64,000 nucleotides of DNA from an uncultured bacterium (lineage in GTDB: Bacteria > Omnitrophota > Omnitrophia > Omnitrophales > JACQLI01), in the NCBI GenBank assembly GCA_964372875.1, contig CAYJTB010000001.1, positions 27,860 through 91,859 on the forward strand, given 5' to 3'. The translations under genes were made by a program, and so were the position numbers. Below the pieces are notes generated by a model. It saw only the letters and a list, made by a program, of their open reading frames with translations. It made no database searches and was not told the origin of the DNA. Each line of letters starts with the position of its first letter. Positions within the stretch are counted from its first letter, which is position 1. Below are positions 3,414-30,312 of this stretch, piece by piece.

Positions 3414-3803
3414 ATGCCACGTATTCTTGGAGTTGACGTTCCAGCGGAAAAGCGGACCGAAATTGCTTTAACTTATGTTTATGGCATCGGCAATTCACTT
3501 GCGAAGAAAGTACTCGCCTTGGCCAAGATCAATCCCAATAAGCGTGCGAAAGAACTGACGGAAAAAGAAATTTATGAAATCACCAATGTGATCCAGCGCG
3601 CGGGGATTAAGGTCGAAGGCGATGTGCGCCGGGAGACCCAGCAAAACATCCGACGGTTGATTGATATTCGCTCTTACCGGGGCCAGCGCCACATCCGGGG
3701 TTTACCCGCTCGCGGGCAAAGGACTCATACCAATGCGCGGACCCGAAAAGGTCCAAGAAAGACAGTGGGCGGACTGCTTAAAAAGCCACCCGCACCTAAA
3801 TAA
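3414..3803 (+). CDS. rpsM: 30S ribosomal protein S13
   Basis: 129 aa, [10 protein letters not shown]...basic C-terminus; alpha-operon order. Confidence 0.95.
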
Positions 3804-3841
3804 GGTTTCGTTAACGAAAAGGAGAATCATTTTAGAAAGTT

Positions 3842-4216
3842 ATGGCGACCAAGAAAAAGAAAGTTAGAAATATAACCAAAGGCGTGGTTCACATCACAGC
3901 CAGTTTTAACAACACCGTGATTACAGTGACGGATCCCCAAGGCAATGCCATTTGCTGGTCAAGCGCCGGTGCCGCGGGTTTTAAAGGATCTAAAAAGTCG
4001 ACGCCTTTTGCAGCCCAACGGGCTTCTGAGATGGCCGCCAAAAAAGCGATGGAAAACGGTCTAAAGGAAGTTGAAGTTTTTGTGAACGGTCCGGGTTCGG
4101 GACGCGAATCTGCGATCCGGGCTCTGCAAGCCGCGGGGCTCCGGGTAACGGCCATCAAAGATGTGACACCTTTGCCTCACAATGGCTGCCGTCCTCCAAA
4201 GCGGAGGAGAGTCTAA
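3842..4216 (+). CDS. rpsK: 30S ribosomal protein S11
   Basis: 124 aa, [18 protein letters not shown]...[16 protein letters not shown]. Confidence 0.95.
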
Positions 4217-9657: not shown

Positions 9658-10662
9658 TTGAAATCACAAGCATCTACTGGTTATAATGCTCCCATGTTGC
9701 GTCGTCTTGTCCTTACCCTAGGTTTTCTTATTTTAGGCACCCTTCCTGCCTGGGCCCAGAAGCAGCTTGTCGATCGGGTGGCCGCTGTTATCAACGACGA
9801 AGCCATTACCCAAAGCGAGCTAGAGATGTATCTGCGTCCCATTTATGAAGGCCTGAAACAGCAATTTGAAGGCGAAGAATTAATGAACCGCTTGAATGAG
9901 ACCCGGCTTAAACTTCTAAATCAAATGATCGAAGACCGTCTTGTTTTTCAAAAAGCCAAGGCCATGGAACTCAAAGCGGAGGACAGTGAGATTGAAGAAG
10001 AAGTGGATAGGCTCAAAAAGCGCTACCCTTCTGAGGAGGCCTTGGAAAAAGAAATGACGAGTCAGGGTTACAGCATGTCAGGGCTTCGGGAAAATATACG
10101 CCGGCAAATCCTCATTCGTAAACTTCAAGACATCGAAGTAAAGTCCCGCGTTATCGTCTCACCCCGCGAGATTGAAGAATATTACAAGTCGCATATCGGT
10201 GAATTCGAACAAGAATTAAGAATGAAGCTGCTTTCCATCACCATTCGTAAAAGTAAAGAGGCCGAGGAAAAAGGACTTGTGGATGAAGCGGCGAAGAAAA
10301 AAATCGAATCCGTTGAATTCCGGATCCGGAGTGGCGAAGACTTTGAGGATTTGGCCCGTCAATTCTCTGAAGATGCCCATGCAGCCGAGGGCGGCCAAGT
10401 CGGCTGGGTCCGTAAAGGCGAATTTCTTCCCTCCATCGAAAAAGCCCTTCACGAATTAAACCAAGGAGCGATTTCCCCAGTGCTGGAAACCGCGGCGGGT
10501 TACCATCTTTTTAGGGTGGAGGAAAAAGATCCCGGGAAGGTGAGTTCGTTGGAGGAAGTACGGGAGAAAATTCGTTCGGTCCTATTCCGCGAAAAGGCTG
10601 AAAAGCGTTTCAAGGAGTGGATGGAAGAATTAAAGACCCAAGCCTACATCTCGGTCCGGTGA
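9658..10662 (+). CDS. SurA-like periplasmic chaperone / parvulin-type peptidyl-prolyl isomerase
   Basis: Signal peptide (MLRRLVLTLGFLILGTLPAWAQ, probable start at 9694), SurA N-domain-like helical region, PpiC domain GGQVGWVRKGEF...GYHLFRVEEK; upstream of pdxA as in the surA-pdxA-rsmA cluster. Confidence 0.8.
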   Translation: MKSQASTGYNAPMLRRLVLTLGFLILGTLPAWAQKQLVDRVAAVINDEAITQSELEMYLRPIYEGLKQQFEGEELMNRLNETRLKLLNQMIEDRLVFQKAKAMELKAEDSEIEEEVDRLKKRYPSEEALEKEMTSQGYSMSGLRENIRRQILIRKLQDIEVKSRVIVSPREIEEYYKSHIGEFEQELRMKLLSITIRKSKEAEEKGLVDEAAKKKIESVEFRIRSGEDFEDLARQFSEDAHAAEGGQVGWVRKGEFLPSIEKALHELNQGAISPVLETAAGYHLFRVEEKDPGKVSSLEEVREKIRSVLFREKAEKRFKEWMEELKTQAYISVR

Positions 10663-10671
10663 CGCCTGGCC

Positions 10672-11721
10672 GTGTTGCAAAAACCCATCATTGCGATCAC
10701 ACAGGGCGATCCCGGCGGGGTCGGTCCCGAAATCATCGCAAAGTCCCTCCAGCATCCTGAAAATTTTTCCGGCGTTTTTCTTCTTCTGATCGGCACCGCC
10801 GTGGTTTTTGAATTTGTCCAAGAAGAATTTGGCATCAAACTCCCTTTAAATCCCATCCCGACCTTGGATCCCCAATTTTTAAGAGACGATTCGCTTAATT
10901 TTTTGGATGTGACGGAAGAAGCGGGATGGCTTTTAAAAAAACACTCCCTGCCCCAGCCCGATGAAAATAATCTTTTTGATATCGGCAAAGTGTCTGCGAC
11001 TAACGCAGCCATGGCCTTGGCGGCCTTGAAGGCCGGGGCGTACCAGGCAGCCACGGGTCTTGTCAATGGACTTGTCACAGCACCTGTGAATAAAGAAGCC
11101 ATTCGACTTCTCGAGCCCAAATTTGTGGGGCATACGGAATATCTGGCCAGAATCGCCCGCACCAAAGAATTCGCCATGATGTTTCTCAAAGCTAAGGACG
11201 AGAGTTCGGGACCTTTGCGGGTGACACTCGTGACCATTCATGTCCCTTTAAAAAAAGTTTCCCGGCTCGTCACTGAAGATGCCATTTTAGAAAAAATCCG
11301 TCTCACACATCAGTTCTTAAAAACCCGCCTTAAAATCGCCAAGCCCCGAATCGGTGTTTCGGCTTTAAATCCGCACGGTCATGAGACGGGGGACGAAGAG
11401 GAAAGAGTGATTTTTCCGGCCATCAAAAAGGCCCAAGAGGAAAATATCTTGGCAAAGGGTCCGGTTTCAGGCGACCGGATTTTTTACGATGCCTCCAAGG
11501 GAATTTATGATGCGGTTATCTCGATGTATCACGACCAGGCGCTGGCGCCCTTTAAATTGGCGGCCTTTGAAACAGGTGTGAATTTAACGCTGGGGCTTCC
11601 CTATGTGCGCACATCGCCTGACCACGGAACCGCCTTTGATATTGCCTACCAGGGAAATGCCAATCCCAAATCCATACAAGCGGCTCTCGCGTTGGCAATT
11701 CAGCTTGTGAAGGTTCGCTGA
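10672..11721 (+). CDS. pdxA: 4-hydroxythreonine-4-phosphate dehydrogenase PdxA
   Basis: ITQGDPGGVGPEI, HGHETGDEE, metal-binding His residues, SPDHGTAFDIA. Confidence 0.9.
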   Translation: MLQKPIIAITQGDPGGVGPEIIAKSLQHPENFSGVFLLLIGTAVVFEFVQEEFGIKLPLNPIPTLDPQFLRDDSLNFLDVTEEAGWLLKKHSLPQPDENNLFDIGKVSATNAAMALAALKAGAYQAATGLVNGLVTAPVNKEAIRLLEPKFVGHTEYLARIARTKEFAMMFLKAKDESSGPLRVTLVTIHVPLKKVSRLVTEDAILEKIRLTHQFLKTRLKIAKPRIGVSALNPHGHETGDEEERVIFPAIKKAQEENILAKGPVSGDRIFYDASKGIYDAVISMYHDQALAPFKLAAFETGVNLTLGLPYVRTSPDHGTAFDIAYQGNANPKSIQAALALAIQLVKVR

Positions 11722-11744
11722 TTTATTTAAATTAAAAGAACTCC

Positions 11745-11877
11745 GTCATCCTGAATGAAGCGACACGTCTTCGAGTGCGGCAAAGCCGCGAAGCCGTGAG
11801 GATCTGCCTTGAGATTCTTTCCGCCAAAGGCGGGCCCGCCTCTGGCGGGCGGCCATAGCCCTCGGCCTCAGAATGAC
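11745..11877. repeat. palindromic MITE-like element with imperfect terminal inverted repeats (GTCATCCTGA ... TCAGAATGAC), GC-rich internal hairpins
   Basis: Convergent intergenic region between pdxA(+) and GT2(-); TIRs related to the GTCATTGCGAGG family found in-frame in tsaD/larB/rsmA. Confidence 0.55.
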
Positions 11878-11884
11878 AGTTTGG

Positions 11885-13594
11885 TTAGTAAACCCGGGCG
11901 GCCCTTCTCTTTTTATTCTTTCCGCCTTTAGGCGCGACAAAAAATTCCATGTATTGGCCGAGGGCCAGGCGTGTCTGTGCATCGAGCGCAGGGACAGCAC
12001 CGAAGATGGTGGCAATGGCCGGGACAAGAAGCCATTGAAGAGCCAAGAAAATCTTTTCATAGAAGGGGACTTTCTTGGGGCGTTTGGGCAGGAGATAAAA
12101 ACTCAGGATAATCGAAATCACAAGGCTTGCGATAGCCATGTTGCAGATGACACCTGCCACCCGAGGCGCATTAAAGTGGGCGACGGTCAAATTGAATTCG
12201 TAATTGGGAACAAGGGCAGGCGCCCAGCTTAAGATCATCATGATGGGGGTCCAGGTGGCCCACGAGACATTCATCTCAAGAAGACGCAGCGCTCGTTTAA
12301 ATTTAAGCCAAAACGGGATCTCCTGATGCTTCAGCATGCCCCTCACGAGAATAGGAAAATTTTCGACCCCCCATGCCCAGCGTCTTTTTTGCCGGTAAAT
12401 GGATTGGCAGGTTTTCCACAAGTTCTCACCGATTGCCACATCCATCGACAACGTAACATAAAGAGGCTCCACCCGGTAATCGCCGTTAAAAATAAGAAAG
12501 GCCTTCCAGAAAATGGCAGAATCATCGGAAACCAGATCCACCGGCCAGTAACCTACTTCGACAAGCGCCTGAAAGCTCATGCTATGGCTTGAAAAGGTAA
12601 CCAAGTGGTCCGGGTCAGTGACTTCGATCAGCTGAAAATAAGAAGACCCTGTTTCTAACACTTGGGCAAAAGAGGGGGCCTCCCAGAGATTGTTATGATA
12701 AACGGGGATGGGCTGAAAACTGGTCCGGGTCCGTTTGGGATGAATCAAATAATTATAGGTGAGGCAAGAAAAATATTCGGTACTTACGACCGTATCCGAG
12801 TCAAAACAGGAAACCACAATGTGATCGAGCGGAGTCCCGCGCGCCTCGAAAAATTTCTTGGCCCAACGCGCGGCATACGTGGCGTTGGCGCCTTTGACCG
12901 CCGCCTCTCCTGGGAGCCCATCGGGATGAATACAGTTTTCAAAGTGGAGGAAATCTTTCGCGTATTCTTCTTTTAAGACCTCCGCAATACGGACCGCCTC
13001 TTTTCCTCCGCGTTCCTCAATCGCAAGGACCACCACGATGTGGTTTTTGGGATAATTCGTTTGTCTTAAAGCCTCAAGCGTGGGTTCTAAGACACTCAGA
13101 CCTTCCCAGAGATAGGGAATAATCACGAGATGATAGATATCTTTTGGATTGGGAAAATGGATTTTATCATGTTGGAGGCGTTTCAAAGTTGCGAGATGCC
13201 TTTTTTCTGAAAAATGAATTTTCCAACCAAGCTTGGGATCGCGAATCCTTTTTTGTGTCCTCGTTATGGCGCTCTCTAAATGGAGAAAATCTTGCAGCCG
13301 GTCAAACCATTGAGCGGTTCGTTCAATTTCAAGAAGCACATAAGAGAGCACCAAAAAAATGGTGAAATAAACCAGCCGGAAAAGCCAGTAGAGATCGAAA
13401 AGAATAACCGTCACAACCCCGGCGACCGGGGCCAAGATACATACGAGTGTAAAGGAAATAAGAAGACTCCAGCTAAGCACGGCGGGGAGGATTTCCAGGC
13501 CACGCTCCAACCGCCCTTCGTTTTTACCCAGATTGTGGCGGGAATATTCAAATTTCATGGAGAATCCTTGGAGGCCGCGGAGGCGGAAACCCAA
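11885..13594 (-). CDS. membrane-bound processive family-2 glycosyltransferase (cellulose/glucan synthase-like)
   Basis: N-terminal TM helices, D...DxD (CFDSDT)...SDD and Q(R/Q)xRW motif (YRQKRRWAWG), C-terminal TM bundle. Confidence 0.8.
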   Translation of the reverse strand: MGFRLRGLQGFSMKFEYSRHNLGKNEGRLERGLEILPAVLSWSLLISFTLVCILAPVAGVVTVILFDLYWLFRLVYFTIFLVLSYVLLEIERTAQWFDRLQDFLHLESAITRTQKRIRDPKLGWKIHFSEKRHLATLKRLQHDKIHFPNPKDIYHLVIIPYLWEGLSVLEPTLEALRQTNYPKNHIVVVLAIEERGGKEAVRIAEVLKEEYAKDFLHFENCIHPDGLPGEAAVKGANATYAARWAKKFFEARGTPLDHIVVSCFDSDTVVSTEYFSCLTYNYLIHPKRTRTSFQPIPVYHNNLWEAPSFAQVLETGSSYFQLIEVTDPDHLVTFSSHSMSFQALVEVGYWPVDLVSDDSAIFWKAFLIFNGDYRVEPLYVTLSMDVAIGENLWKTCQSIYRQKRRWAWGVENFPILVRGMLKHQEIPFWLKFKRALRLLEMNVSWATWTPIMMILSWAPALVPNYEFNLTVAHFNAPRVAGVICNMAIASLVISIILSFYLLPKRPKKVPFYEKIFLALQWLLVPAIATIFGAVPALDAQTRLALGQYMEFFVAPKGGKNKKRRAARVY

Positions 13595-15036
13595 TCATCT
13601 ACCAACCGGGGAAGAATATTTGCCGGCTCGAAAAGCTGGATCCGTGACAATCGGCGGGTAAGGGGATCCGCAAAATAAACAAACCCCCGTCTTTCATCCA
13701 AAGCAATTTGAGGGACTCTTTTTGAAATTTGGAAGAGAGGAACCGCTTGGCCATTGCCTTCAAAATCCAACACCTTTACCCAGCCGCCTTCTACAAATAA
13801 AAGATAATTGTCATTGTAAAACCAAGTGAGATTAGAAATTTTTTGCTCTCCCTGATAAATTTTTCGGGGGGAAACGCCGGTTTGGAAAAATTCTTTTTCC
13901 GGTTCACGCTCAAAATCGACCAGCCAAAGTTCAGAATCTTTCCGGTAGACAGCCCGCCTGTTGAAAACGGCCGTGACCACTTCCTCCACTCTCTTGTCCA
14001 GGTAATAGGGAAGCCGGTTGGAAAAAAGCTTGCCTTGATCCGACAAGAAAAGAGCAAACGCCTCATGAAGCGGAGTGAAGATAAAAGGCCGGGAGAGAAA
14101 ATAGAAGGAATAGCGTTCCCCCTCGTCAGGACCGAAAATAAGGTGCGCCTTGGCGGCCGTGCCCAATAACGTTTTCCGGATTTCCCCTTTTTCAGTTAAT
14201 TCGAATAAACGTCTTCGGGCATCCATCACAAAAAGTTTGCGTCTGTCCGTGGTATAGCCCCGAATCCCGCCCTGCACATCAAAGAGAGGAAACCGTTCTT
14301 CAAAATCCATTTTTTTGAGGGTATCGCCTTGAAGATAAAAGAGTGCATTTTTTTGAGAGGGGCCCCAACGAAACTTATCGAAGGGTTCCTGGAGACTTCC
14401 AGCAAGCGGAGTCAGTTCCATGGGACTCAGGAATTTCACAAGAAAAGGACGAATGCCTTCTTTTTGTTTCATGAAGGCCACGGCCTTTTCGCCTAAGGGA
14501 TGCATCAGGACTTCTCCCACTGGGAAATCATATTCGCCTGAAAAATTGGGGAAAATAGGCTCGAGTTGATTTCGCTCAGGTTCAAAAAGATAGAGCCCGG
14601 AGACGTGATCGCCTTGAAGGACTACAAGTTTTCTTGTCTGTGCAGCGTGCCAGATTTTTGTGATGGGAAAATCCGTGAGCTTCTCCGAATCAAACTGAGT
14701 GGGGAAGAGCAAAATATTTTCAAAAGAAAGGACCTTATCGGCTTTGACCTCCACTTGTTTTTGCCAAGGATGCATTCCCGGCAGGCTCAAGTGAAGGTTA
14801 TAAAAACCGGATTTAAGATTACGAATGACGACAGGGGTGGTGTCTTTCAAGACCCGGTGATTGAGCTCAACCTGGGCTTGGGAGGGGTGTGAATTAAGGC
14901 TGATCAGGCCGGTGAGGAGAAGCTTGGAATGGCTGGGGCTGAAAATATAGCCCAAGGCATAGAGCACGGTCAAAGGTGCTATCACAAGGTAGGCTACGGT
15001 AAAAACCAAGAAGATTGCTTTACGTAAAATTCCCAT
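13555..15036 (-). CDS. hypothetical N-terminally membrane-anchored protein, upstream partner of the GT2 synthase (40-nt overlap)
   Basis: 493 aa; single N-terminal TM (FLVFTVAYLVIAPLTVLYALGYIF) then large extracytoplasmic domain; operon with GT2; no recognisable family by eye. Confidence 0.5.
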   Translation of the reverse strand: MGILRKAIFLVFTVAYLVIAPLTVLYALGYIFSPSHSKLLLTGLISLNSHPSQAQVELNHRVLKDTTPVVIRNLKSGFYNLHLSLPGMHPWQKQVEVKADKVLSFENILLFPTQFDSEKLTDFPITKIWHAAQTRKLVVLQGDHVSGLYLFEPERNQLEPIFPNFSGEYDFPVGEVLMHPLGEKAVAFMKQKEGIRPFLVKFLSPMELTPLAGSLQEPFDKFRWGPSQKNALFYLQGDTLKKMDFEERFPLFDVQGGIRGYTTDRRKLFVMDARRRLFELTEKGEIRKTLLGTAAKAHLIFGPDEGERYSFYFLSRPFIFTPLHEAFALFLSDQGKLFSNRLPYYLDKRVEEVVTAVFNRRAVYRKDSELWLVDFEREPEKEFFQTGVSPRKIYQGEQKISNLTWFYNDNYLLFVEGGWVKVLDFEGNGQAVPLFQISKRVPQIALDERRGFVYFADPLTRRLSRIQLFEPANILPRLVDDWVSASAASKDSP

Positions 15037-15087
15037 GTTGTTCTAACTCCCTATTGGGCCTCATTTTATGCTACTTGGGGGTCATTT

Positions 15088-15116
15088 GACAAGTTACGTT
15101 CCAGAGGGTATCTTTT
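15088..15116 (+). promoter_or_regulatory. sigma70-like promoter (TTGACA-17-TATCTT) in divergent region upstream of giant gene
   Basis: ttgacaagttacgttccagagggtatctt. Confidence 0.4.
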
Positions 15117-15211
15117 GTTACAGTGAAAGAAACTCTTAAGTGAATGTTCCTAAGGGGTTAGCACCTCGACTCTATTGATTTTTTTGGGGTATGCTCGGTG
15201 CTATGGTGAGC

Positions 15212-15240
15212 GAGATTGAAATTGGCGGTGCCAATTTCAA
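15212..15240. promoter_or_regulatory. perfect 12-bp-stem palindrome (gattgaaattgg cggtg ccaatttcaatc) in the leader of the giant gene
   Basis: Seen directly; 76 nt upstream of the ATG at 15316; possible operator or RNA hairpin. Confidence 0.5.
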
Positions 15241-15315
15241 TCGTGTCGAACCATTAGCAACAACTCCAGGGAATTTTTTTACTCTGTAATTCAGACCTTT
15301 AGGAAAGATTAAACT

Positions 15316-18300
15316 ATGACCCTACGCGCGAAAAATTTTTATCTACGCACTGTCGCAGCTTTCACCGCAATCATTTTTTGCTGGAATAGCCTTGCTTGGC
15401 CGCTTCCCGAGGTTGCGGTTCCCCAGGCCGGCAAAACTTTCGATCTCATTCCAAAAGAACTCGGAACCGTCGATGAATACGAACTGCCGGACGCTTCACA
15501 TTCCGCACCCTTTGTCATACATATTCAAGATCTCCACGCAGCACCCGAAGCTCAAGAAAAAATCCTGGACATTCTTAAATTTTTACATTCAAAAAAGAAA
15601 CTTCTCGTAGCGGTCGAAGGAGCCGCCGGAACGCTTCATCCTGAGTATTTAGATTTCTTTCCGCAATACCCGCGTGTCACAAACGCACTCGTTCAAGATT
15701 TGGTAAGTGAGAGCATGCTTACAGGGCCGGCGTTATTCGCATGGGAGAGGTATGAGAGTAAGCCGTCATTGCACCCGTCATTGCGAGGACGTAAGTCCGA
15801 AGCAATCTCAAATCCTAGATTGCTTCGTCGGGCCTTTGGCCCTCCTCACAATGACAATAGCGTCCAATTCATAGGCGTCGAGACGCCGCGTCTTTATCGC
15901 GAAAACCTTAAAGCCTATCGCGATTTTTTCCAGGATGAAGAAAAAAATCAGCAGGATTTGAAATCTTTCCAAACCTCATTGGAATCGGCCCAAACGAAGA
16001 TTTTCAATCCTGATTTGAGGAAATTTGTCCAAGAAGTCCAGAGACGTAAAGATGGAAAGTTTCAATCGGGAAAGGCCTCGCCCGATCTTGCGGCTTACAT
16101 TCGCTTTCTCGCGGATTCAAGCCGAGATCATTTGGGAGTTGATCTAAGAGATAAATTCGAACAGATCCGTTTTCCCAATCTAACCCGCATTCTTTTCTTG
16201 ATGGAATTCGAATCAAAAATCACTGCTCACCAGCGCCGGGTTCTGCATTCTGAAATTGAATCCAAAAAACTTTTTGATGAAATCACACTTCTCGAAACAA
16301 GACTGCGGCAAATACTGGTTAAAAAGCCGGAAGAAACAAAACTTCTTGAGATCCTTGATGATTTCAAGTTGCTTGAGAAGTTATTCCATTTGGAACTGAC
16401 TCGCGAGGAATATTACCAAGTCGTCAACAGGGTTTTGGAAATCAATCCGTCGAATTTACATCAGCGTTTGGCAACCATTGCTGAGATTGCTTCGACCTCG
16501 TCTGAAATGTTGTCTCGCAATGACGCCGATTACGAAACTGCTCTGCGTTTTTACCGCTTAGCCATTCGCAGAGACAAAGCCCTTCTTGAAAATGCCTTGC
16601 GAGAGGCAGCTAAAACGGAGAACTCGTCTCAAGAAAAACCACTCATCGTTCTTGTTACCGGCGGTTTTCACACTTCAGGGGTGAGCGAGCTTCTCAAAGA
16701 AAAGAAAATTCCTTACGCCGTCGTCACGCCTGCCTTAGCAAAAACCAAAGCCAATCAAGACCAATATCACAAACTGATGTCCGGCAAAATGTTCGCCAAA
16801 GAAGCCTCAAGCGCTTCGCCCAAGAATAACAATCTGGTGTGGGCGCAGATTCTTACAGCAAGAGATCGGTACCCGAGCCTCAATTCCGACGAGGATCAGC
16901 AAAAAATATTTTCCCACGCGACTGAAAAGTCCGGCGAGTATTTTCGAAAATTCTATCCCCAAATCTCCGAACCCAAACTGCAAGAACTTTTATCTCGCCC
17001 CGCCGGATTCTTTTCGCAAATCTCCCGTTCCGAATTGCAAAGTAGGAGCCAGATTACGAATTCGGCCATCGATGGCCGAATTGGCGGGAAAAGGGTACTG
17101 CCTTCACGTTTTCCGCGCTCGGAAGTGCGGGCGGTAGAACAGCGATTAGAAGTCAGTGGTCAGAAGACAGAAGGCTGGAGTTCAAAGATAGGAAAAATTA
17201 TCAGGAATGGCAGCGATTTTGGACTATCGAGGGTTTTCCAGCGTAGTCAGGCGAAGAATTATCGAATTCCAAGCCGCTTAGAAAAATCTCGAGGTGAAAG
17301 AATAGAAATCTCTTTAAAGGTTTTCATCGATAGCAGATCGTGGTCTCCTGTGACAATGATCGTTGCTTTAGCTGAAAGAGCGCATTCCAGCACGGCATCA
17401 TCGTCCGGGTCACGGCAGGCCTTTACCTTTGTTTTAGGTTTGACTATCAAAGCTTTCATATGGATCAATGAAATCATTTCTTCAAGCATTTCAGGCGTGA
17501 TCCATTTCTTGAGTTTAGGTTTTTCCAGTGAGCGAAGAAAGTCTTCCAGTAAGGCCGGAGATAAAGCCGCAATGAACTTGTCTTCTTCCAGGGATTCCAG
17601 AATCGAACGGCAAACGCCCGGAAAGGCGAGTCCGCTCACCAGCACATTCACATCAAGAACGACCCGACGCATACCGTTCCTGCCGGGCTTGCTTGACCAG
17701 ATTCAGAAGCTCTTTTCGGCTGAGAGGGTGTTTCTTTCGGCTTTTATCAACTTTGCGGGTCAGAGAACGGAAGCGTTCTCCCCAGGTCTTATGTTCAAGA
17801 CGACGGATCAGGGTAATGCGGTCACGGGATTTCAATTGATTGATCATGCGCTCAATTTGTTGAATGTCTACTTCCACGGCAATCTTAGGCATAGGATTTT
17901 ATCCTCCTCTTCGAATCAGTATAATTTATCGGCCTTGGCGGATCAAAATCAAAACATTTCTTCCGTTAAGCCTTCTAAGCAAAGTTCGACAGAACCGAGC
18001 CGAAGGGCCGCTTCCGGCCCCGAGAGCCGTCAGTCTCCGATCCTAAGCGTCGATAGACCCGGAGGGGCCCGTGGGGAGGTGCGGGCAAAAGAACAGAGGT
18101 CAGAAGTCAGAGAGCAGAGGATAGAGGTCATAAGTCAGAGATCAGAAGGAAAAATTACTTCGAGTGGCGGCGATTTTGGTAGCGTTCGATCAGGTACATC
18201 ACGCCCCAGGCAAGAAATATCAAAACCAAAACAAGAGACACGGTTATCACGTTTTATTTACCCCTTTTCCGAATCTCTTGGGCAAGCCATCCAAGAAATA

Positions 18301-27300: not shown

Positions 27301-28719
27301 ATAAAAAATCATTTTCTGACCGCGCTTCATCATTTCATTTGGGAACACAGCGACTTTGAAGATGCGAAGAATTTAGCCAGAGAACTCGGTAACTTGAGCC
27401 TAATCAGTTCTTTGTTGGGTGAGCCCCTCAGTAAAAGACAGGCCGCTTTTTATAAGCGCGCACTTTTGAGCTCTGACCGCACGCAGCAGAAGATCGCGCT
27501 TGGCTTCTTCGAGACTTTCCCTGATCTTGAAAAAATGGACTGGAAAGAGGAAGTCGTTGGTAAACTTAAAGAAATCGTAATGGATGAATCCGAAGATTCT
27601 GAATTTAGAAAATATGCCTTTGAAGCGTTGACAAACAATATTCTTCTTATAGAGCCAGCCTTTTTGGCGCCTTATTTTAAAGAGCCGCGCAGCCAACGGT
27701 TTCGAATCATTTCTTCGGATAAAAAAGGCGCTCGGATTTTATTTTCGGTTCTTCAGAAGAAATTTGGGTCGCCTTTAAAGGACCCGCCCCTTTTTAAAAA
27801 AAGTTCCGAGTCCATCATTTTATCAGGAGAATTTACGACAGGTCTGAGAAATGCTGCCATGTTGATCCGATTTGTAAGGCAGGCCTACGGCCGGGAGATA
27901 TCCTTTGATGAGTCCCGCGGCTTGCTTAAAGAGATGAAAAAGAAACAAGACAGATCCCGGCGTTCCGAAATACGGAGTGAAAGCTTGGATTCGACGTGGG
28001 AGTTGAGGGAGGATGCGAACAAAGGAAAGCTTGCGGAACTTGGAAAACAATTTGCGCCGATGATTGAGAGTCTTTGGAAACGCTCCGAGGTCAGGCACAG
28101 GCTTGCGACGGACGGATTTTTGAATCTTTCAAAGCTGATTGAAATTCCCAAAGCCGAAGCGGCTGAACCTGCGATTGTAGCTGCGCTTTTGATCCGTGCA
28201 GAACAATCCCAAACCGGAACGCCGGCTTTGGACAAACATTTGCAAGTGTGGCAGTCGCGCATGGGAATCAGTTCGGTTGCTAAAGAAAATGAAGTCGTAA
28301 TCCTCTTAGAAGGTGCGGCGTTTAAACTCGGACTCTTGGCTGCGATCGACGGAATTAGCCCGGCAGCTCCGAAGATCGGCGTTGTGGCGCCCAAGGCTTA
28401 CCATTCTTTAGTGGAAGAAGTCAGAAGCGGTCTTAGAACCGGGCAAGAACTGATCGAAGGGGAGAAGCTTCCCGAAATTTTAAATCAAATTGCTCAGATG
28501 AAACAGAAGCCAAGCCGCTTAACGATTTGGGCTTCGAAGGAAGACTCGTTCTTAACAGCAGCGTTCATCAAACGTTTTCTTAAAGATCCAAACCTGAATG
28601 TAGAAGTAAAGACCGTGACGCAGCGCGATCTTGACCGCGCCAACGCGTCTCACCCCGGCTTTGCGGAACGTATCAAGAACTTCCTCGCCGCCGTCAAATC
28701 CCTCAGCATTTCCGCTTAA
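15316..28719 (+). CDS. giant secreted multi-domain protein (4467 aa): signal peptide, helical N-region, 7-blade WD40-like beta-propeller, three ~70-aa WN..HP repeats, Pol-beta-like nucleotidyltransferase-like motif, HEAT/ARM-like helical C-terminus; contains recurrent RSEVR motifs and in-frame GC-rich hairpin repeats
   Basis: Single uninterrupted 13.4-kb ORF; N-terminus MTLRAKNFYLRTVAAFTAIIFCWNSLAWP; WD40-like blades ~18.55-19.5 kb; GSLGVLGSAVRDKSDLNLMVV at ~25.49 kb; RBS aggaaag upstream. Confidence 0.8.
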   Translation: MTLRAKNFYLRTVAAFTAIIFCWNSLAWPLPEVAVPQAGKTFDLIPKELGTVDEYELPDASHSAPFVIHIQDLHAAPEAQEKILDILKFLHSKKKLLVAVEGAAGTLHPEYLDFFPQYPRVTNALVQDLVSESMLTGPALFAWERYESKPSLHPSLRGRKSEAISNPRLLRRAFGPPHNDNSVQFIGVETPRLYRENLKAYRDFFQDEEKNQQDLKSFQTSLESAQTKIFNPDLRKFVQEVQRRKDGKFQSGKASPDLAAYIRFLADSSRDHLGVDLRDKFEQIRFPNLTRILFLMEFESKITAHQRRVLHSEIESKKLFDEITLLETRLRQILVKKPEETKLLEILDDFKLLEKLFHLELTREEYYQVVNRVLEINPSNLHQRLATIAEIASTSSEMLSRNDADYETALRFYRLAIRRDKALLENALREAAKTENSSQEKPLIVLVTGGFHTSGVSELLKEKKIPYAVVTPALAKTKANQDQYHKLMSGKMFAKEASSASPKNNNLVWAQILTARDRYPSLNSDEDQQKIFSHATEKSGEYFRKFYPQISEPKLQELLSRPAGFFSQISRSELQSRSQITNSAIDGRIGGKRVLPSRFPRSEVRAVEQRLEVSGQKTEGWSSKIGKIIRNGSDFGLSRVFQRSQAKNYRIPSRLEKSRGERIEISLKVFIDSRSWSPVTMIVALAERAHSSTASSSGSRQAFTFVLGLTIKAFIWINEIISSSISGVIHFLSLGFSSERRKSSSKAGDKAAMNLSSSRDSRIERQTPGKASPLTSTFTSRTTRRIPFLPGLLDQIQKLFSAERVFLSAFINFAGQRTEAFSPGLMFKTTDQGNAVTGFQLIDHALNLLNVYFHGNLRHRILSSSSNQYNLSALADQNQNISSVKPSKQSSTEPSRRAASGPESRQSPILSVDRPGGARGEVRAKEQRSEVREQRIEVISQRSEGKITSSGGDFGSVRSGTSRPRQEISKPKQETRLSRFIYPFSESLGQAIQEIRIMMATIIERTALAFNEVFQMFSLTTRAANTRLTALMIPSANKFRLLDGKRVFISMLQAPQPNTGLILSQILFLEYEISRRSEVREYISDWTVSTLETKQPVLAAAFSTDGKILAAGARNNVHLTNGDLRKWSVEFRAHRNEIAKLISFQRGNRNFFATASRIGSISLWNSNGGLIRRLEQLNPEDFQPVLGLSVSKNGDWLAATDMDVMKIYDLTGMSSPKTIPITDQSRNHFVQFSPDGTSIASTYYGEIRIEDIKTGKLRANLHHEASLKKSMDTSALAFSKGDDVAAASTDGKIRIWRWKGERQPQVLDFLSPAREASHLIFSPNGKRLAASTADQIEIWKLNGKVWRHEETIYPHLDAVTEILFSPDAKRFMAAGIWHGSGRVRIWSKETPARAEVRTDGIPTTWFRIFNRLDNLNREVWKQKDLDIIDLTNQLEKKLISLFGSQLLYGIWTWNTSVREVRFGLRSGPLSFELTANPHQEIPEREIKRGYTVTMNAMLTSAAESQHAKKWGDSEPEERGETLLEIPIAEIDRSQPVIYFGSFYFDTDKEKKETIIKQEILFLPGEERNYQIYIWHNNALEKTTLEKEGGRTYAVWRTPEAEPSLSFQYVALHDAQGKDLGEISRLILKAGNSETYRNNLQFLYGPIWRDETSSFSHGSRTSVKPSVFEDLISAAPGKRIAALLGLAIEYQYVPEGQVFSRMLLTELEKLEGLPYGRIAALREIAEMSPEEAHERFKDPYDQPSAIPAVMTLVASLAPRLLERMKNWDQEFYEELKGVLQKPDLKTLFEEGEVKFYEADHLWAASDNRSFFPGVVAFSRSKDRQIIVPIYFGNEPKDEDGKVWFKILDATSLGIENSNAATYQVYDHMLGEFYKTLHSGEKLYREGWSIGIPVVPGKLDRAGFIQKGRHVQFLEMRRTQSLTTATRIGLPENLVKTQGILTDLLREMSKLEIYFFISKTGATDRRMVPVDNVYEFFSSYAGKKGEHWNEIVSEPLQLTVSSPGFKRQTLRHALRMMQEALQLTYSFPGTLKGNDPHLSFYHDKLIEETQLLKTSDQTGKWAHVEFEIASSHFEMPDHWDQPAENSLRQRIQALREALEIPFVLMLKAPSGAKDPYHIEPVGNLHQRLPYFVLKDDFLKNPHDPRFPYFSKGAQLSFGLEAPMDSARLEQVRNILVASLEGRMSAATLKRAIEVTMHQWQREDSFFSESRSEARRVPRTLAVHPVRLAPGTPLYPDRSGPGVAVQSHWNSARSEVRTEKSERLTRSNAGELLKPRRYLKNKIYGIGRITAVEGKFGGKDPQGSVEVAFLNKHGFEETKEFSTWSLFQLPEQNPEEAFFSVTRQEIEDFKNQKRQGQAAYKEEIDKKRIAQREGRQWMEAQSPTFSLYDSPFSARAGRPLAADYRKLMQGIQDRAQGEYHLGSASIVERKILFEMLGTRLIPKTNQSETTLRINLGRRKKEFAEKLKTILDETGGLSARAVSEAEEKIMSPKDKSRALSSEWLKFRDPVTGKFATEKDIKRWIQNAIPIVERILEYEVKLLKLEKQIQIHPRPLARSEVRAAESSPTKKVAFFNLRTADDSSIVLPQRMSYLPVEQRLPDYSAWRIRVGRESGNLHAFLRDVLGPRWHWNVKGETKAYFLYKSLPKKFKQFIGKRKPPTGFDMEALGLLVVNRSDIFYIPMEETVNESVVTVLDKNDRDAINEFISHHAMIQTVPQNIRIFPPVRYESVKFGLGEDPVSSPKPGSIEVVYHPRLMVNDLGKADKEIIFETSFDLTQLRPRKKITAELEGRFYQELKSRLRNTWQIRIGNRTVEMPRAKDLPAKVQDVEEILLPGNNRKTASLHFNDAVSFYLDGILMRSNVPVPKDIHAWIFWKTRIRFNDQEISVETTEGNNVLTYRTDETGEHLRVNGEPTDNSVLQNMIRQMGSAFSILAFQMARDPEQTDYLRESGKETIDDEFDQWLGRSEVREEGQPAQNGNGHAIQKKQRGRGFRTKEEALQALAERQAKGLSSDPKSLQRHLAEGGNPTLLTFIYRWNQKHPEEPIEMKLLPTRTHKYESKGEIIEALEKRRLEKGESANYRMQLRLHIEEGGDRTLYQAVLRWNHDHPEDLINLPLDPHVAHGQLGKYQTKQDGLNTLSERKKQGLGNSTSDLRQTKSDGGDWPLLVFIRHWNKKHPKDRIALENADQNFNRLSPVAVWHSQTQDFKTTDQKRTEWWRALQEEADHEAGKRLVESFIPSVNEIAQRLSGGRDSHYEADLIQNGNMIVLETIYPERKEDQWNPSRGVSMTEFVETRLKKEMRHRTLQEIRSSGRFSIDEPYRFSKGREKEWQVPSYDAQPQEVRINNLADERDKQSGLPVILFEEKHQIAREIGKWLIKKGFLKQVKQEGIQNLAVSMIGSLGVLGSAVRDKSDLNLMVVTDANESQAEALAEKLAQWIGGRYHEPQDSEPIRISVGKEGDYEQAIADGNGFISLLQKHKVGTDPIKGIASVEVIGIPDEDNSFSEDSLTRQKTRAAFHLAFQDPRLAEQAINGILVLENAKGAAERLAQKLPSDQENLFGYYEKFLAKQAANLRKLQESSIDSKARAEVHPNPTDSGTPQSSPDQARAEVRSSLPEQRAEKKLETRKLEIGAGISGLSGRVETSNGRVFSGSDRLPIKSTRSPQKSEWQGQPSFSLPPLRSLPQKSSPNKSISRVLLERQAAISGRVLGKALLPELLLIGPKSHAETTLPASPSGPLSGIYFSQNKIYSNINSELSDFSRSDGSTSSPSVLSKAEGRVERAEVHPNPTDSGTPPHSRPTGVSTEVSLAAPPGAPPSSPERARAEVRASVEEIIRKQMLSGDLKAFEKNFESYDREKAFELLNSISKIAKEISERIRKGEEELMVAANNGQKMQEIIDAAKILENFPNDKQIHGVHLSAIINLQEIFNLTPKALPRYRNLLEAIVKHASKKEQPHQAAAEIIESFEGEQHADSQQDQFQRNEALEFLTLDLDEKVFKETVIKNHFLTALHHFIWEHSDFEDAKNLARELGNLSLISSLLGEPLSKRQAAFYKRALLSSDRTQQKIALGFFETFPDLEKMDWKEEVVGKLKEIVMDESEDSEFRKYAFEALTNNILLIEPAFLAPYFKEPRSQRFRIISSDKKGARILFSVLQKKFGSPLKDPPLFKKSSESIILSGEFTTGLRNAAMLIRFVRQAYGREISFDESRGLLKEMKKKQDRSRRSEIRSESLDSTWELREDANKGKLAELGKQFAPMIESLWKRSEVRHRLATDGFLNLSKLIEIPKAEAAEPAIVAALLIRAEQSQTGTPALDKHLQVWQSRMGISSVAKENEVVILLEGAAFKLGLLAAIDGISPAAPKIGVVAPKAYHSLVEEVRSGLRTGQELIEGEKLPEILNQIAQMKQKPSRLTIWASKEDSFLTAAFIKRFLKDPNLNVEVKTVTQRDLDRANASHPGFAERIKNFLAAVKSLSISA
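17259..17672 (-). CDS. PIN-domain toxin (TIGR00305-like), encoded antisense inside the giant ORF
   Basis: MRRVVLDVNVLVSGL...CRDPDDDAVLECALSAKATIIVTGDHDLL: conserved acidic residues of the PIN fold. Confidence 0.75.
   Translation of the reverse strand: MRRVVLDVNVLVSGLAFPGVCRSILESLEEDKFIAALSPALLEDFLRSLEKPKLKKWITPEMLEEMISLIHMKALIVKPKTKVKACRDPDDDAVLECALSAKATIIVTGDHDLLSMKTFKEISILSPRDFSKRLGIR
17653..17892 (-). CDS. putative antitoxin partner of the nested PIN toxin
   Basis: 79-aa basic/helical protein overlapping the PIN start by 20 nt (classic TA arrangement); no recognisable fold by eye. Confidence 0.5.
   Translation of the reverse strand: MPKIAVEVDIQQIERMINQLKSRDRITLIRRLEHKTWGERFRSLTRKVDKSRKKHPLSRKELLNLVKQARQERYASGRS
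18258..18461 (-). CDS. small (67 aa) 2-TM membrane protein, antisense inside giant ORF; paralog of 26324..26533
   Basis: MKTLFPSKRRNLF...VSLVLAALVV...SLKAKAVLSIIVAIMILISW; AT-rich promoter-like region immediately upstream on the minus strand (TTGACT at 18505-18510). Confidence 0.5.
   Translation of the reverse strand: MKTLFPSKRRNLFADGIMRAVSLVLAALVVSENIWKTSLKAKAVLSIIVAIMILISWMACPRDSEKG
21972..22113 (+). repeat. in-frame GC-rich hairpin cluster inside giant ORF (paralogous to 26062-26130 and 26630-26790)
   Basis: gtgcacccg-loop-cgggtactcc flanks shared with the 26-kb copies; stems cccggtgc/gcaccggg, acccggacc/ggtccgggt, cattggaac...gttccaatg; ends in RSEVR codons. Confidence 0.5.
26062..26130 (+). 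repeat. in-frame structured repeat unit (40-nt perfect repeat + second hairpin) inside giant ORF
   Basis: gccgaggtgcacccgaatccgaccgattcgggtactcctc identical at 26062-26101 and 26644-26683; hairpin cccgaatc/gattcggg; second hairpin cctcgcc-cgatca-ggcgagg. Confidence 0.6.
26324..26533 (-). CDS. small (69 aa) 2-TM membrane protein, antisense inside giant ORF; paralog of 18258..18461
   Basis: GTG start; MKSIFLTTARRDWL...VILVLLAGVLGG...SLKWRLVVLGGLVICFYLGLIF; shares MK(S/T)(I/L)F, K.SLK...VL...V.I pattern with the other copy; AT-rich region with TTGATA upstream on minus strand. Confidence 0.5.
   Translation of the reverse strand: MKSIFLTTARRDWLAKLFQHVILVLLAGVLGGELFLKLSLKWRLVVLGGLVICFYLGLIFAASSSKEED
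26630..26790 (+). repeat. in-frame structured repeat unit, second copy, with four hairpins
   Basis: Same 40-nt repeat; additional stems actcacgcc/ggcgtgagt, cctggcggc/gccgccagg, cctcgcc-tgaacg-ggcgagg (loop differs from copy 1 while stem is kept). Confidence 0.6.
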
Positions 28720-28737
28720 TCTTGTTTCAAACCACGT

Positions 28738-28766
28738 TTGACAAACATGCCAAATTGTATTACACT
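28738..28766 (+). promoter_or_regulatory. sigma70-like promoter TTGACA-17-TACACT upstream of vapBC
   Basis: ttgacaaacatgccaaattgtattacact, followed by RBS GGAGG before ATG 28808. Confidence 0.45.
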
Positions 28767-28807
28767 TTACCGATCGATAAGTTAATCGTATGACAACGGA
28801 GGCTTGA

Positions 28808-29017
28808 ATGACACGAGTGACAGTTTCCCCAAAATATCAAATCGTGATCCCTAAAGAAATTAGGGAAAAGTTGGATATTCGGTGCGGACAGAAGATGGCC
28901 GTCGTAACAAGAGGGGAATGGATTATGCTGGTTCCCGATCTGCCTTTGAAACATTATCGGGGGTTTTTGAAAGGTGTGAGTTCAGAGGGGGTTCGTGACC
29001 GAAGGGACCGGTTTTGA
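28808..29017 (+). CDS. vapB: AbrB/MazE-fold antitoxin (VapB-like)
   Basis: 69 aa, MTRVTVSPKYQIVIPKEIREKLDIRCGQKMAVV swapped-hairpin motif; 4-nt overlap with downstream PIN gene. Confidence 0.75.
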   Translation: MTRVTVSPKYQIVIPKEIREKLDIRCGQKMAVVTRGEWIMLVPDLPLKHYRGFLKGVSSEGVRDRRDRF

Positions 29018-29391
29018 CGGTCATCGATTCAAGCGGTTGGATTGAGTTTTTTAGCGAAGGTCCACTTGCCTCCCATTATGAAAAGCATTTGGGGTCTTTG
29101 TCTGAGATTGTCGTTCCTACCATTGTGCTTTATGAAGTCTACAAGAAATATAAGAGAGAAAGCGGAGAGCAAGGCGCTTTGACCGCGGTGTTTCATATGC
29201 AAAAGTGCCGGATCGTACCTTTAACAGAAGAATTGAGTTTGGAGGCGGCGGATTTAAGCCTTCAATACGGACTTGCCATGGCCGATGCGATTGTTTATGC
29301 GTCGGCACTTCAGGAAAAAGCAAAGTTAATCACCAGCGATAAAGCCTTAAAAAATCTGCCTCAAGTGGTTTACTACAGTAAATCGTCCTAA
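29014..29391 (+). CDS. vapC: PIN-domain ribonuclease toxin VapC
   Basis: 125 aa, VIDSSGWIEFF...conserved Asp/Glu, ADAIVYASA, LITSD. Confidence 0.75.
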   Translation: MTVIDSSGWIEFFSEGPLASHYEKHLGSLSEIVVPTIVLYEVYKKYKRESGEQGALTAVFHMQKCRIVPLTEELSLEAADLSLQYGLAMADAIVYASALQEKAKLITSDKALKNLPQVVYYSKSS

Positions 29392-29397
29392 GATTCC

Positions 29398-30312
29398 TTG
29401 AGTTCCACGCAAATCGCCCTTCTTAAAAAATACGGTCTTGAAGTCCGTGGATTTCGCGGCCAGCATCTTTTGGTCGATCCCAACATTCAACGAAAGATCG
29501 TGGAGTTAGTCGCTCCCAAACCAGGTGAGTGGATCGTTGAGATCGGGCCGGGCCTGGGTGCGCTCACGACTGAGATTTTGGCGGACGGCGCGTCGGTCCT
29601 TGCGATTGAAAAAGACAAACGCTTCTGCGAGATCCTGGAAGGGGAGTTCGGCATCGATTACAAAGGAAAACTCCTGATCGAAAATGCGGATGTTCTCAAG
29701 ACGGATTTAAAAAAATTACTCAAATCGTCGTTACGAGCCCCAAAGAGGCGAAGCAACCTAAGCACGAAGACTGCTTCGGCGCCGCCTCGCAATGACCGGA
29801 TCAAAGTCATCTCGAACCTTCCTTACTATATAACTTCACCTGTGCTTTTCTGGCTGATCTCCAATCGTGCATCTGTGGAAAAAGCGGTTTTGATGATGCA
29901 GGCTGAAGTCGCGGACCGTTTGCTCGCCCAGCCGGGAGATAAAGATTATAGCCGGCTTACCTTGGGAGTCCGGTATTACGCCGAAGTCCACCGTGCTTTT
30001 GAAGTTTCCCGCAATTGTTTTACTCCGAGGCCCGATGTCGATTCAACGGTCGTGACGATCGATTTTCACCCGCCGTCCGCATTCCCAAAAGGAATCGACG
30101 AGGCATTTCTTTTCCATCTCATTCAAGTAGCCTTCGGTGCCCGGCGAAAAACCCTACTCAATCGTCTTACGCAAGATTCAAAAGTAGGTCGCCCTCGTTC
30201 CCAGCTCTTAGAAATTTTTCACAAGCTCGGCATCCCCGAAATGGCCCGCGCTGAAGAGCTCCTCCTCAAAGACTTCATCTCATTGACCGAATTTCTTCAA
30301 CCTAAACATTAA
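29398..30312 (+). CDS. rsmA: 16S rRNA (adenine1518/1519-N6)-dimethyltransferase RsmA/KsgA, carrying an in-frame palindromic-element insertion
   Basis: TTG start; GQHLLVDPNI, VVEIGPGLGALT, NLPY motif; ~23-aa extra loop (...RRSNLSTKTASAPPRND) coincides with element 29727-29796. Confidence 0.88.
   Translation: MSSTQIALLKKYGLEVRGFRGQHLLVDPNIQRKIVELVAPKPGEWIVEIGPGLGALTTEILADGASVLAIEKDKRFCEILEGEFGIDYKGKLLIENADVLKTDLKKLLKSSLRAPKRRSNLSTKTASAPPRNDRIKVISNLPYYITSPVLFWLISNRASVEKAVLMMQAEVADRLLAQPGDKDYSRLTLGVRYYAEVHRAFEVSRNCFTPRPDVDSTVVTIDFHPPSAFPKGIDEAFLFHLIQVAFGARRKTLLNRLTQDSKVGRPRSQLLEIFHKLGIPEMARAEELLLKDFISLTEFLQPKH
29727..29796. repeat. palindromic element (degenerate 5-prime TIR gtcgttacgag ... cctcgcaatgac) inside rsmA
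   Basis: 3-prime end identical to the tsaD and larB copies (CCTCGCAATGAC); internal gaagcaa motif shared. Confidence 0.55.

Follow-up and report, generated by a model that had tools for sequence, protein, structure and literature searches.

The giant genes found in Omnitrophota, whose products can exceed 100,000 residues, are known to be puzzling. Published studies of these genes raise the question whether the products work as intact chains or are cleaved, and suggest C39 or S8 peptidase domains as possible processing enzymes (10.1101/2023.11.21.568195; 10.64898/2026.06.07.730766). The missing information on cleavage points prevented the giants from being split (West-Roberts et al. 2023, 10.1101/2023.11.21.568195; 10.64898/2026.06.07.730766). 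Here, we describe a 4,467-residue protein encoded in a stretch of 64,000 nucleotides, the window, from an uncultured bacterium of the Omnitrophales (GenBank assembly GCA_964372875.1, contig CAYJTB010000001.1, positions 27,860 to 91,859 of the forward strand). A single open reading frame (ORF) holds the whole region in which a pentapeptide of the type RSEVR recurs. The protein belongs to a family of giant proteins in which the junctions between modules are signalled by R-[S>A]-E-[V/L/M/I]-R. As the most likely function of the motif, and the most economical reading, we propose site-specific proteolytic processing, which would make the giant ORF a polyprotein gene; we give this reading about even odds. 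The parts of the ORF are:

15316..28719, plus strand: giant ORF, comprising a hydrophobic N-terminal helix, a conserved N-domain, variable cargo separated by motifs and a conserved C-terminal domain
15316..16830, plus strand: N-domain (aa 1-505), which defines the family; a helix (aa 8-27) followed by an alpha/beta domain that contains D72-x-H74, E101 and G449-G-F-H452
18574..19443, plus strand: WD40 beta-propeller module (aa 1087-1376), with Pfam matches down to E = 8e-24; in a Pfam scan of the whole protein the sole recognised part
28096..28716, plus strand: C-terminal domain (aa 4261-4467), a Rossmann-like alpha/beta fold with the end -ISA, common to the five closest relatives

A recurrent peptide motif at 17116-28095 had been claimed in a sequence-only reading of the window, and it is indeed there. 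A regular-expression scan gave 13 in-frame matches to R[SA]E[VI][RH] in the giant ORF (seven RSEVR, three RAEVR, two RAEVH and one RSEIR), where 0.05 are expected from the protein's own composition, and there are two near-variants in addition; for RSEVR itself, seven copies compare with 0.008 expected. The six frames of the whole 64 kb contain one further match only, in a non-coding frame. The sites listed in that reading are real and its coordinates right to within 0-9 nucleotides (nt), but the copies at ~26120 and ~26770, given as RSEVR, are both RAEVR, and the RAEVR at 19492 and the RSEAR at 21937 had been overlooked. The copies are:

17116..17130, plus strand: RSEVR (aa 601), first junction past the N-domain; the first copy of relatives is similarly placed (median aa 704)
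18070..18084, plus strand: near-variant RGEVR (aa 919)
18097..18111, plus strand: RSEVR (aa 928)
18541..18555, plus strand: RSEVR (aa 1076); the WD40 propeller begins 7 residues later
19492..19506, plus strand: RAEVR (aa 1393), 17 residues past the propeller end, closing the WD40 propeller
21937..21951, plus strand: near-variant RSEAR (aa 2208); R[SA]EAR is 35-fold enriched in the family
22063..22077, plus strand: RSEVR (aa 2250)
22972..22986, plus strand: RSEVR (aa 2553)
24196..24210, plus strand: RSEVR (aa 2961)
from 26059, plus strand: RAEVH (aa 3582), opening the first composite linker
from 26122, plus strand: RAEVR (aa 3603), closing the first composite linker
from 26641, plus strand: RAEVH (aa 3776), opening the second composite linker
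from 26767, plus strand: RAEVR (aa 3818), closing the second composite linker
27961..27975, plus strand: RSEIR (aa 4216), junction ahead of the C-terminal domain; the five closest relatives have a motif-like sequence in the same column
28081..28095, plus strand: RSEVR (aa 4256), without conservation in the closest relatives

Relatives were sought with the N-domain (~500 residues) by a word-indexed search, which returned few, by a scan of one genome per GTDB species, and with HMMER on cluster representatives. The species scan gave 22 loci, 13 of them in Omnitrophota/Omnitrophica and one each in Auribacterota, Elusimicrobiota and Planctomycetia; the other six are titled just 'uncultured bacterium'. 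At these loci the ORF starting with the N-domain is usually giant and has at most 10 motif copies. Among 1.84 billion cluster representatives, 6,062 match the N-domain at E <= 1e-3 and 3,089 at E <= 1e-10, and most of the best 150 matches are 1,000-7,800 residues long. The window protein is a member of a very large, mostly giant protein family, seen here mainly in Omnitrophota. Five of the loci (L005, L008, L014, L004 and L017) have two or more N-domain giants in tandem on the same strand within 20 kb. In some cases the N-domain ORF is only 860-911 aa long and a large, separate ORF with the motif comes after it; these may be genuine splits or assembly frameshifts.

In 164 member proteins with 435,523 residues, R[SA]E[VILM]R is present in 507 copies against 6.7 expected, and 108 of the 164 carry it. 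Signature words of the N-domain itself aside, the most enriched pentamers are RSEMR, RSEVR, RSELR and RAEVR. The sequence-only reading had suggested a motif scan in homologous giants, and such a scan thus finds the motif, with positional conservation at 20-40% identity as described below. Chance or composition as the source of the motif is ruled out by the excess in the window protein and in the family. A genome-wide peptide or DNA repeat is ruled out as well: the lone other match in the 64 kb is non-coding, and in 23 loci the motif is confined to the family's ORFs or their tandem fragments. Single-position scans show a strict pattern. Both arginines are needed, Lys being at background, and so is the Glu, Asp being at background; position 2 accepts only Ser, enriched 169-fold, and Ala, enriched 39-fold; at position 4, V, M, L and I are the main residues and A, T and S are less favoured; the last Arg is occasionally His. 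The flanks are nearly free of information. Small residues or Pro are favoured at positions -3 to -1 and S, T or A at +1, where Pro (0.37x, though 1.5-3x enriched elsewhere in linkers) and Arg (0.37x) are avoided, and hydrophobic residues are depleted beside the motif on both sides.

The motif marks the boundaries between modules, and its position is conserved family-wide. That the sites fall at domain boundaries, as the sequence-only reading had it, holds wherever a domain is recognisable: the WD40 propeller at aa 1087-1376 is bracketed by the copies at aa 1076 and 1393, and the C-terminal domain follows the copy at aa 4216. In relatives, recognisable modules lie next to copies as follows:

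P0073: complete two-domain hexokinase, 671-1167, with flanking copies at 663-667 and 1170-1174
P0123: another hexokinase, 3692-4177, with flanking copies at 3682 and 4185
P0123: propeller, beginning 7 residues past a copy
P0029: glycogen-synthase-like module, copies on both sides
P0006: UGPase module, copies on both sides
P0009: sensor kinase/receiver module, copies on both sides

An all-against-all comparison of the giants, with the N-domain left out, agrees with this: 34% of alignable blocks begin within 30 residues of a motif, compared to 10% for random positions, and 494 motifs were found within alignable blocks where 1,083 were expected. In alignments of 20-40% identity, 39-50% of the motifs pair with a motif, and the 40 flanking positions are 22-25% identical and gappy. 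Copies are spaced by a median of 323 residues, and the last motif is at a near-constant distance of 285-318 residues from the C-terminus in most members of the two largest clusters of C-terminal domains (28 and 20 members). A short conserved site is found at the junctions between independently folding modules, as expected of a polyprotein.

Between these sites the proteins have little in common. Beyond the N-domain, the window protein shares only the ~250-residue C-terminal domain, with its five closest relatives, and one 236-residue block. Relatives with ~50% identical N-domains have no detectable common cargo, just the N- and C-terminal domains, from which it follows that cargo is exchanged much more quickly than the two ends of the protein. 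Other clades carry C-terminal domains of their own, of which those of four clades are mutually homologous by profile comparison (89-97%); for the C-terminal domain of the window clade against them, hhalign did not establish homology (best E = 0.0045, probability 8%), and a word-index search with it returned no matches. The domain is a generic Rossmann-like fold with no peptidase among its structural neighbours. At its very end the chain has an amphipathic helix and then a conserved tail whose last residue is Ala in 125 of the 164 family proteins (-AA in 55, -SA in 45 and -QA in 17); the window protein ends in ...ISA (28708-28716). Ala-rich protein ends are recognised by tail-specific or Clp proteases, and the Ala C-termini of the family resemble them.

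Is the peptide or the nucleic acid under selection? According to the sequence-only reading the codons differ and the amino-acid motif rather than the DNA is conserved. This is borne out in the window, whose copies draw on six codons for Arg, the four TCN codons for Ser, both for Glu and all four for Val, and in 88 motif instances with DNA taken from the window and the 22 related loci. In these instances all third codon positions vary, the adjacent DNA is unrelated so that only the 15 coding nucleotides recur, and the permitted substitutions (V/L/M/I and S/A) are conservative for the peptide while differing in the first base. Selection therefore acts on the peptide. The codons are not used at random, however: the Ser of the motif is encoded by TCN in 58 of 59 cases, though AGY makes up 33% of the Ser codons elsewhere in the same ORFs, the first Arg is CGY in 73% and the Val GTG in 64% of the instances. 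We read the restriction of Ser to TCN as inheritance of sites under purifying selection, with copies that would spread with their modules and not arise anew.

The codon bias also bears on a different explanation, namely that the motif is the translated footprint of a DNA or RNA junction that serves cassette shuffling, duplication, insertion, or RNA processing or structure, and that the peptide has no role. Some linkers of the window protein are DNA repeats, and two of them, the composite linkers, would fold into strong hairpins as nucleic acid:

17115..17222, plus strand: left copy of a direct repeat of ~110 nt with the motif at its start, flanking an antisense cassette (see below)
18069..18179, plus strand: right copy of this repeat, with the motif at its start
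26056..26136, plus strand: first composite linker, RAEVH-PNPTDSGTPQSSPDQA-RAEVR (aa 3582-3607), hairpin-rich nucleic acid (-43 kcal/mol, z = -3.4)
26638..26781, plus strand: second, longer composite linker (RAEVH at aa 3776 to RAEVR at aa 3818), four predicted hairpins (-97 kcal/mol, z = -7.8)

The direct repeats around the cassette (repeat families D1, D2, D4 and D10) are 75-86% identical and the DNA of the two composite linkers 90-94%. The composite linkers follow the pattern R[SA]EVH-(P/S)xPTxx(G/S)TPxSS...-RAEVR, which is also present in P0019 (seven copies) and P0154 (two copies), and their peptide recurs in the closest giant relative, which is from another organism. The near-complete difference of cargo between relatives with similar N-domains, which indicates a quick turnover of modules, and the homogenisation of motif variants within a gene would also suit a junction in the nucleic acid. 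However, hairpins are limited to the two composite linkers, most copies of the window are outside hairpins and DNA repeats, and an Rfam search of the linkers gave no family match. A cassette junction at the DNA level, of the type of shufflon sfx or integron attC, would have a conserved nucleotide sequence or structure at each junction, and none was found. The variable third positions, the unrelated adjacent DNA and the peptide-conservative substitutions with different first bases speak against it as well, as does the exclusion of Lys and Asp, which are one nucleotide away, and TCN-only Ser is also expected from purifying selection on an inherited codon. Taken together, a nucleotide junction with a silent peptide is improbable.

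The motif is tuned by lineage. Within a protein, the commonest variant accounts for a share of 0.64 of the copies, compared to 0.41 +/- 0.015 when the variants are shuffled, and none of 1,000 shuffles reached the observed share; in extreme cases all copies are the same (14/14 RAEVR, 12/12 RSELR and 11/11 RSELR). Moreover, five giants with intact N-domains (P0121, P0146, P0148, P0151 and P0153; also P0122) have no RSExR at all. The five have instead [AG]-[AS]-S-L-G, in 35 copies against 2.1 expected, the first just past the N-domain and the following ones every few hundred residues. The two motifs are mutually exclusive, and three of the five ASLG-type giants are mutual nearest relatives by their N-domains. 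Uniformity within a lineage together with wholesale replacement between lineages is how a junction site behaves when it is read by a co-evolving protein. The sites co-vary with lineage, as they would if protease and sites evolved together; this covariation does not by itself identify the reader, since N-domain phylogeny probably tracks organism phylogeny. Residues that could set the specificity of RSExR-type and ASLG-type N-domains differ only weakly (E110, E327, D420E, P77Y) and are not used as evidence here.

These patterns would be odd for a linker that has no reader and a purely structural role, as a cap or turn, held by a salt bridge, that shields domains from each other or sets the pace of co-translational folding. 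The alternating charges of R-x-E-x-R could form a salt bridge within the peptide, the motif is always between folded modules, and no dedicated partner gene was found, all of which would agree with such a role. But a structural linker would accept K for R and D for E, which the family does not, and neither the wholesale swap to the unrelated, uncharged [AG][AS]SLG in one subclade nor the homogenisation to one hydrophobic variant per lineage would be expected of it. In addition, AF2 models the motif residues with low confidence and without defined structure; in the model of the window's C-terminal region both copies are in stretches with a predicted local distance difference test score (pLDDT) of about 35-60. 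We regard this role as very unlikely.

A reader could also bind the motif and leave the chain intact. The motif would then be a short linear docking motif for a partner (the N- or C-terminal domain, the WD40 propeller, a chaperone or a secretion factor) that organises the modules or hands them over. A short, strict motif with uninformative flanks in flexible linkers is as compatible with binding as with cleavage by a protease; were the peptide an extended strand, its R, E and R would share one face and S/A and V/L/M the other; the lineage variants and the alternative motif fit any co-evolving reader; and tandem close copies suit multivalent binding. The window protein even has a candidate partner in its WD40 propeller. 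The 'Win' peptide of MLL1, bound by WDR5, is A-R-[A/S/T]-E, and several window copies resemble it with A-R-[A/S]-E-V-[H/R]. However, a propeller is present in just 3 of the 87 multi-motif members and Ala at position -1 in only 78 of the 507 copies (15%), so WDR5-like Win docking on a propeller in cis fails as a general explanation. Against docking in general are three further observations: no partner gene is conserved near the giants, the avoidance of Pro and Arg is confined to +1, and the motif is present at essentially every boundary, 3-10 residues from the ends of the hexokinase, which is needed for processing but not for docking. Docking on an intact protein thus appears unlikely, if less far-fetched than a junction of the nucleic acid or an inert linker.

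If the motif is cut, by what? The sequence-only reading had seen no obvious cognate protease in the window, but the protein's own N-domain is a candidate. A model of the N-domain from an 18-sequence alignment (pLDDT 79.8, predicted template-modelling score 0.75) has an alpha/beta core split by a helical insertion at about aa 190-440. The best structural matches of aa ~45-505 all belong to the TIKI/TraB/PrgY/ChaN/erythromycin-esterase superfamily, with RRSP among the structural neighbours, and the model shows the alpha/beta fold, built on a parallel beta-sheet core, that ChaN, Ere, TraB, HopBA1 and RRSP have in common. As judged from this model, the N-domain has the fold of the TIKI/TraB/ChaN/EreA-like hydrolases, a link that is structural only: there was no sequence-profile match to the curated families (TraB_PrgY_gumN, ChaN-like, erythromycin esterase) in Pfam/NCBIfam at E <= 0.1, and a profile search of the PDB sequences gave no meaningful match. 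D72, H74, E101 and H452 (in G449-G-F-H452) are 97-100% conserved in the 61 RSExR-type members and in other subclades. RRSP is a TIKI-family endopeptidase with the catalytic 2His/2Glu set E3900, H3902, E3930 and H4030; the 2His/2Glu pattern is described for RRSP and the Ere enzymes, and the superfamily includes site-specific endopeptidases (PMC6254334). The spacing from H74 to E101 is 27 residues, that from H3902 to E3930 in RRSP 28, and equivalence is judged by order and spacing only. The N-domain is a candidate protease because it combines this fold with the His/acid signature of a superfamily that contains site-specific endopeptidases. No other endopeptidase is encoded in the 64-kb window, which has a methionine aminopeptidase only, and across 23 loci there is no conserved neighbour gene near the giants. 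If the motif is cut, the N-domain is the most economical candidate for the enzyme; that it does the cutting is possible, though less likely than not.

It is tempting to speculate how such a system would work, and we offer the following as a tentative model. A membrane-anchored, TIKI-like N-terminal endopeptidase would cut its own and sister chains at R-S/A-E-phi-R, or at [AG][AS]SLG in one subclade. The N-terminal helix would anchor each family protein in the membrane. The ~500-residue N-domain is followed by a lineage-specific string of independently folding modules such as enzymes, propellers and sensor kinases, with one motif copy in each short, flexible linker between them and, in several subclades including that of the window, a conserved C-terminal domain at the end; these last domains are not all demonstrably homologous. 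If the N-domain cut its own chain or neighbouring copies, enzymes and other modules would be set free in stoichiometric amounts. The motif might double as a universal 'plug' into which new cargo is spliced, possibly even an antisense toxin-antitoxin operon with the giant frame kept open. A stretch of motif and linker such as ...PSRFPRSEVRAVEQ... is a candidate cleavage substrate. The avoidance of Pro and Arg and the preference for S, T or A at +1 fit a scissile bond after the second Arg; cleavage before S/A is equally conceivable.

Several points weigh against proteolytic processing or against the N-domain as its enzyme. Many family members of ~1,000 aa are without the motif, and motif-less members keep the same conserved residues in their N-domains; the function of the N-domain therefore does not require RSExR sites. 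The superfamily also has members that are not proteases. The bias in codon usage means that the copies are related by descent or are also under some constraint at the nucleotide level. Close pairs of copies (aa 919/928, 3582/3603 and 4216/4256) would yield tiny peptides, and the copy at aa 4256 is possibly recent or incidental since the closest relatives do not conserve it. The depletion of hydrophobic residues may just reflect linker composition, as it is seen on both sides of the motif. Finally, because of its N-terminal helix the N-domain could come to lie outside the membrane, whereas cargo like hexokinase needs the cytoplasm.

The surroundings of the giant gene are those of an ordinary bacterial chromosome. 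Upstream, the order is secY-adk-map, rpsD-rpoA-rplQ, mfd, surA and pdxA; downstream, ksgA, gatA, gatB, tsaD and a polysaccharide-export cluster follow. In E. coli, surA, pdxA and ksgA are contiguous, and the giant gene therefore looks like an insertion into a conserved operon. Here, surA and pdxA are on the 9658-15036 side and ksgA is at 29398-30312, which leaves a gap of ~17.7 kb (about 11,700-29,400) with two divergent genes, for a GT2-like glycosyltransferase and a PEGA-domain protein (11885-15036, minus strand), and the giant gene.

Within the giant ORF, a cassette on the opposite strand deserves mention. It is flanked by the direct repeats described above and comprises:

17259..17892, minus strand: toxin-antitoxin-like operon, antisense within the giant ORF (aa ~648-860, which look 'junk-like' in the giant protein), made up of a PIN-domain gene and an upstream ORF
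17259..17672, minus strand: PIN-domain gene, 137 aa (PF13470 PIN_3, E = 8e-18)
17653..17892, minus strand: 79-aa ORF upstream of the PIN gene with a 20-nt overlap; no Pfam match

The layout, a PIN-domain toxin behind a small overlapping upstream gene, is that of type II (VapBC-like) toxin-antitoxin systems, and to judge by its sequence the cassette is apparently an intact toxin-antitoxin operon. Over 17131-18069 the giant frame has no stop, compared to 18 in each of the other two plus-strand frames. The PIN protein has no Tyr and no Gln; by our own reading of the frame relationship, Tyr and Gln codons would be those that most readily create stops in the giant frame.

An insert of another kind is in the N-domain:

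15777-15855, plus strand: in-frame palindromic insert of 79 nt (aa ~155-181), GTCATTGCGAGG...CGAAGCAATCT-N8-AGATTGCTTCG...CCTCACAATGAC

It is translated as ...SLRGRKSEAISNPRLLRRAFGPPHNDN..., folds with -41 kcal/mol (z = -8) and is present once in the window. The insert is missing in 95-98% of the relatives and is unstructured in the N-domain model (pLDDT < 50). We take it to resemble a repeat element that is often translated in metagenomic ORFs.

In the cargo, aa ~2981-3297 (window ~24260-25200) comprise three internal repeats of ~65 residues with W-N-x-K/D-H-P in each (…IYRWNQKHPEEPI…, …VLRWNHDHPEDLI…, …IRHWNKKHPKDRI…). After these there is a weak sigma-70 region-2-like match (NCBIfam E ~0.003-0.01), below the curated threshold, and a stretch, GSLGVLGSAVRDKSDLNLMVVTD, that resembles a minimal nucleotidyltransferase motif and is below any curated threshold. 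Between the composite linkers, 168 codons (26137-26640) are free of stops in the giant plus frame and in one minus frame; the minus-strand ORF 26115..26621 has no Pfam match, and the translations of both strands of 26137-26640 look low-complexity.

The strict, family-wide junction motif makes the question whether Omnitrophota giants act whole or cut directly testable, at R-S/A-E-phi-R. It provides the first concrete candidate cut positions for these giants as well as a practical rule for splitting them into modules for structure prediction and annotation, and the conserved N-domain is a concrete enzyme target with defined residues. If the sites are cleaved, polyprotein expression, known from viruses and toxins, would also apply to enzymes of the housekeeping type in a cellular organism; if the TIKI-like N-domain does the cutting itself, the family would be a chromosomal counterpart of the viral polyproteins, with a new pair of protease and site and the cleavage map that earlier work lacked. 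Even without cleavage, this motif and [AG][AS]SLG would define a new modular architecture with very fast cargo turnover.

Among known systems, the TIKI/TraB/PrgY/ChaN/EreA superfamily is the reference for the N-domain, which keeps the acid-x-His, the Glu ~27 residues further on and the C-terminal G-x-x-His. Unlike described members, it has no match in Pfam or the PDB at the sequence level, a large helical insertion (about aa 190-440) and Asp instead of Glu as its first acid, and it is fused to thousands of residues of cargo. Multi-core precursors of ribosomally synthesized and post-translationally modified peptides, such as the cyanobactin precursor PatE, likewise have conserved short recognition sequences that flank hypervariable cassettes and direct dedicated proteases. 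PatE-type cassettes are peptides of 6-8 residues and the proteases subtilisin-like and separately encoded, whereas the cassettes of the giant family are folded domains of 100-1,200 residues.

In function, viral polyproteins and MARTX toxins come nearest to the proposed system. The polyproteins of picorna-, poty-, flavi- and coronaviruses are similar in that one ORF gives many products with a short conserved site per junction, in that the sites of one lineage are alike and change along with the protease from lineage to lineage, and in that small residues are favoured and Pro is avoided just after the scissile bond. They differ in that the giant gene is chromosomal, in a cellular organism, between pdxA and ksgA, that the candidate protease is of unrelated fold, that module content varies between relatives, and that the giant family is known here from sequence, with cleavage as a proposal.

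MARTX toxins, too, are giant bacterial chains of unrelated modules, which are released by a protease domain of the same chain that cuts the linkers between modules. Linkers of MARTX are cut after Leu; the family described here carries the five-residue signature R-S-E-x-R instead of Leu sites, with putative cleavage. The giant protein itself is ruled out as a MARTX toxin, as the whole-protein Pfam scan gave WD40-type matches only and detected no cysteine protease domain and no RTX repeats, and the cargo of the family includes housekeeping-type enzymes (hexokinase, glycogen synthase, UGPase). Yet one MARTX effector, RRSP, is a TIKI-family endopeptidase (PMC6254334) and a structural neighbour of the N-domain, with the difference that the TIKI-like domain of MARTX does not do the processing but is itself cargo, directed against host Ras.

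Closest by origin are the published Omnitrophota giants. A text search of both studies (10.1101/2023.11.21.568195; 10.64898/2026.06.07.730766) found no mention of the motif, a linker, a polyprotein, TraB or an erythromycin esterase, and a literature search for the pentapeptides returned only unrelated acronyms; within the searchable literature, neither the junction motif nor its ASLG counterpart nor the TIKI-like N-domain has been described before. With the giants of those studies the present family has in common the phylum, the multi-enzyme layout with glycolytic enzymes and WD40/TPR arrays, and the N-terminal membrane anchoring.

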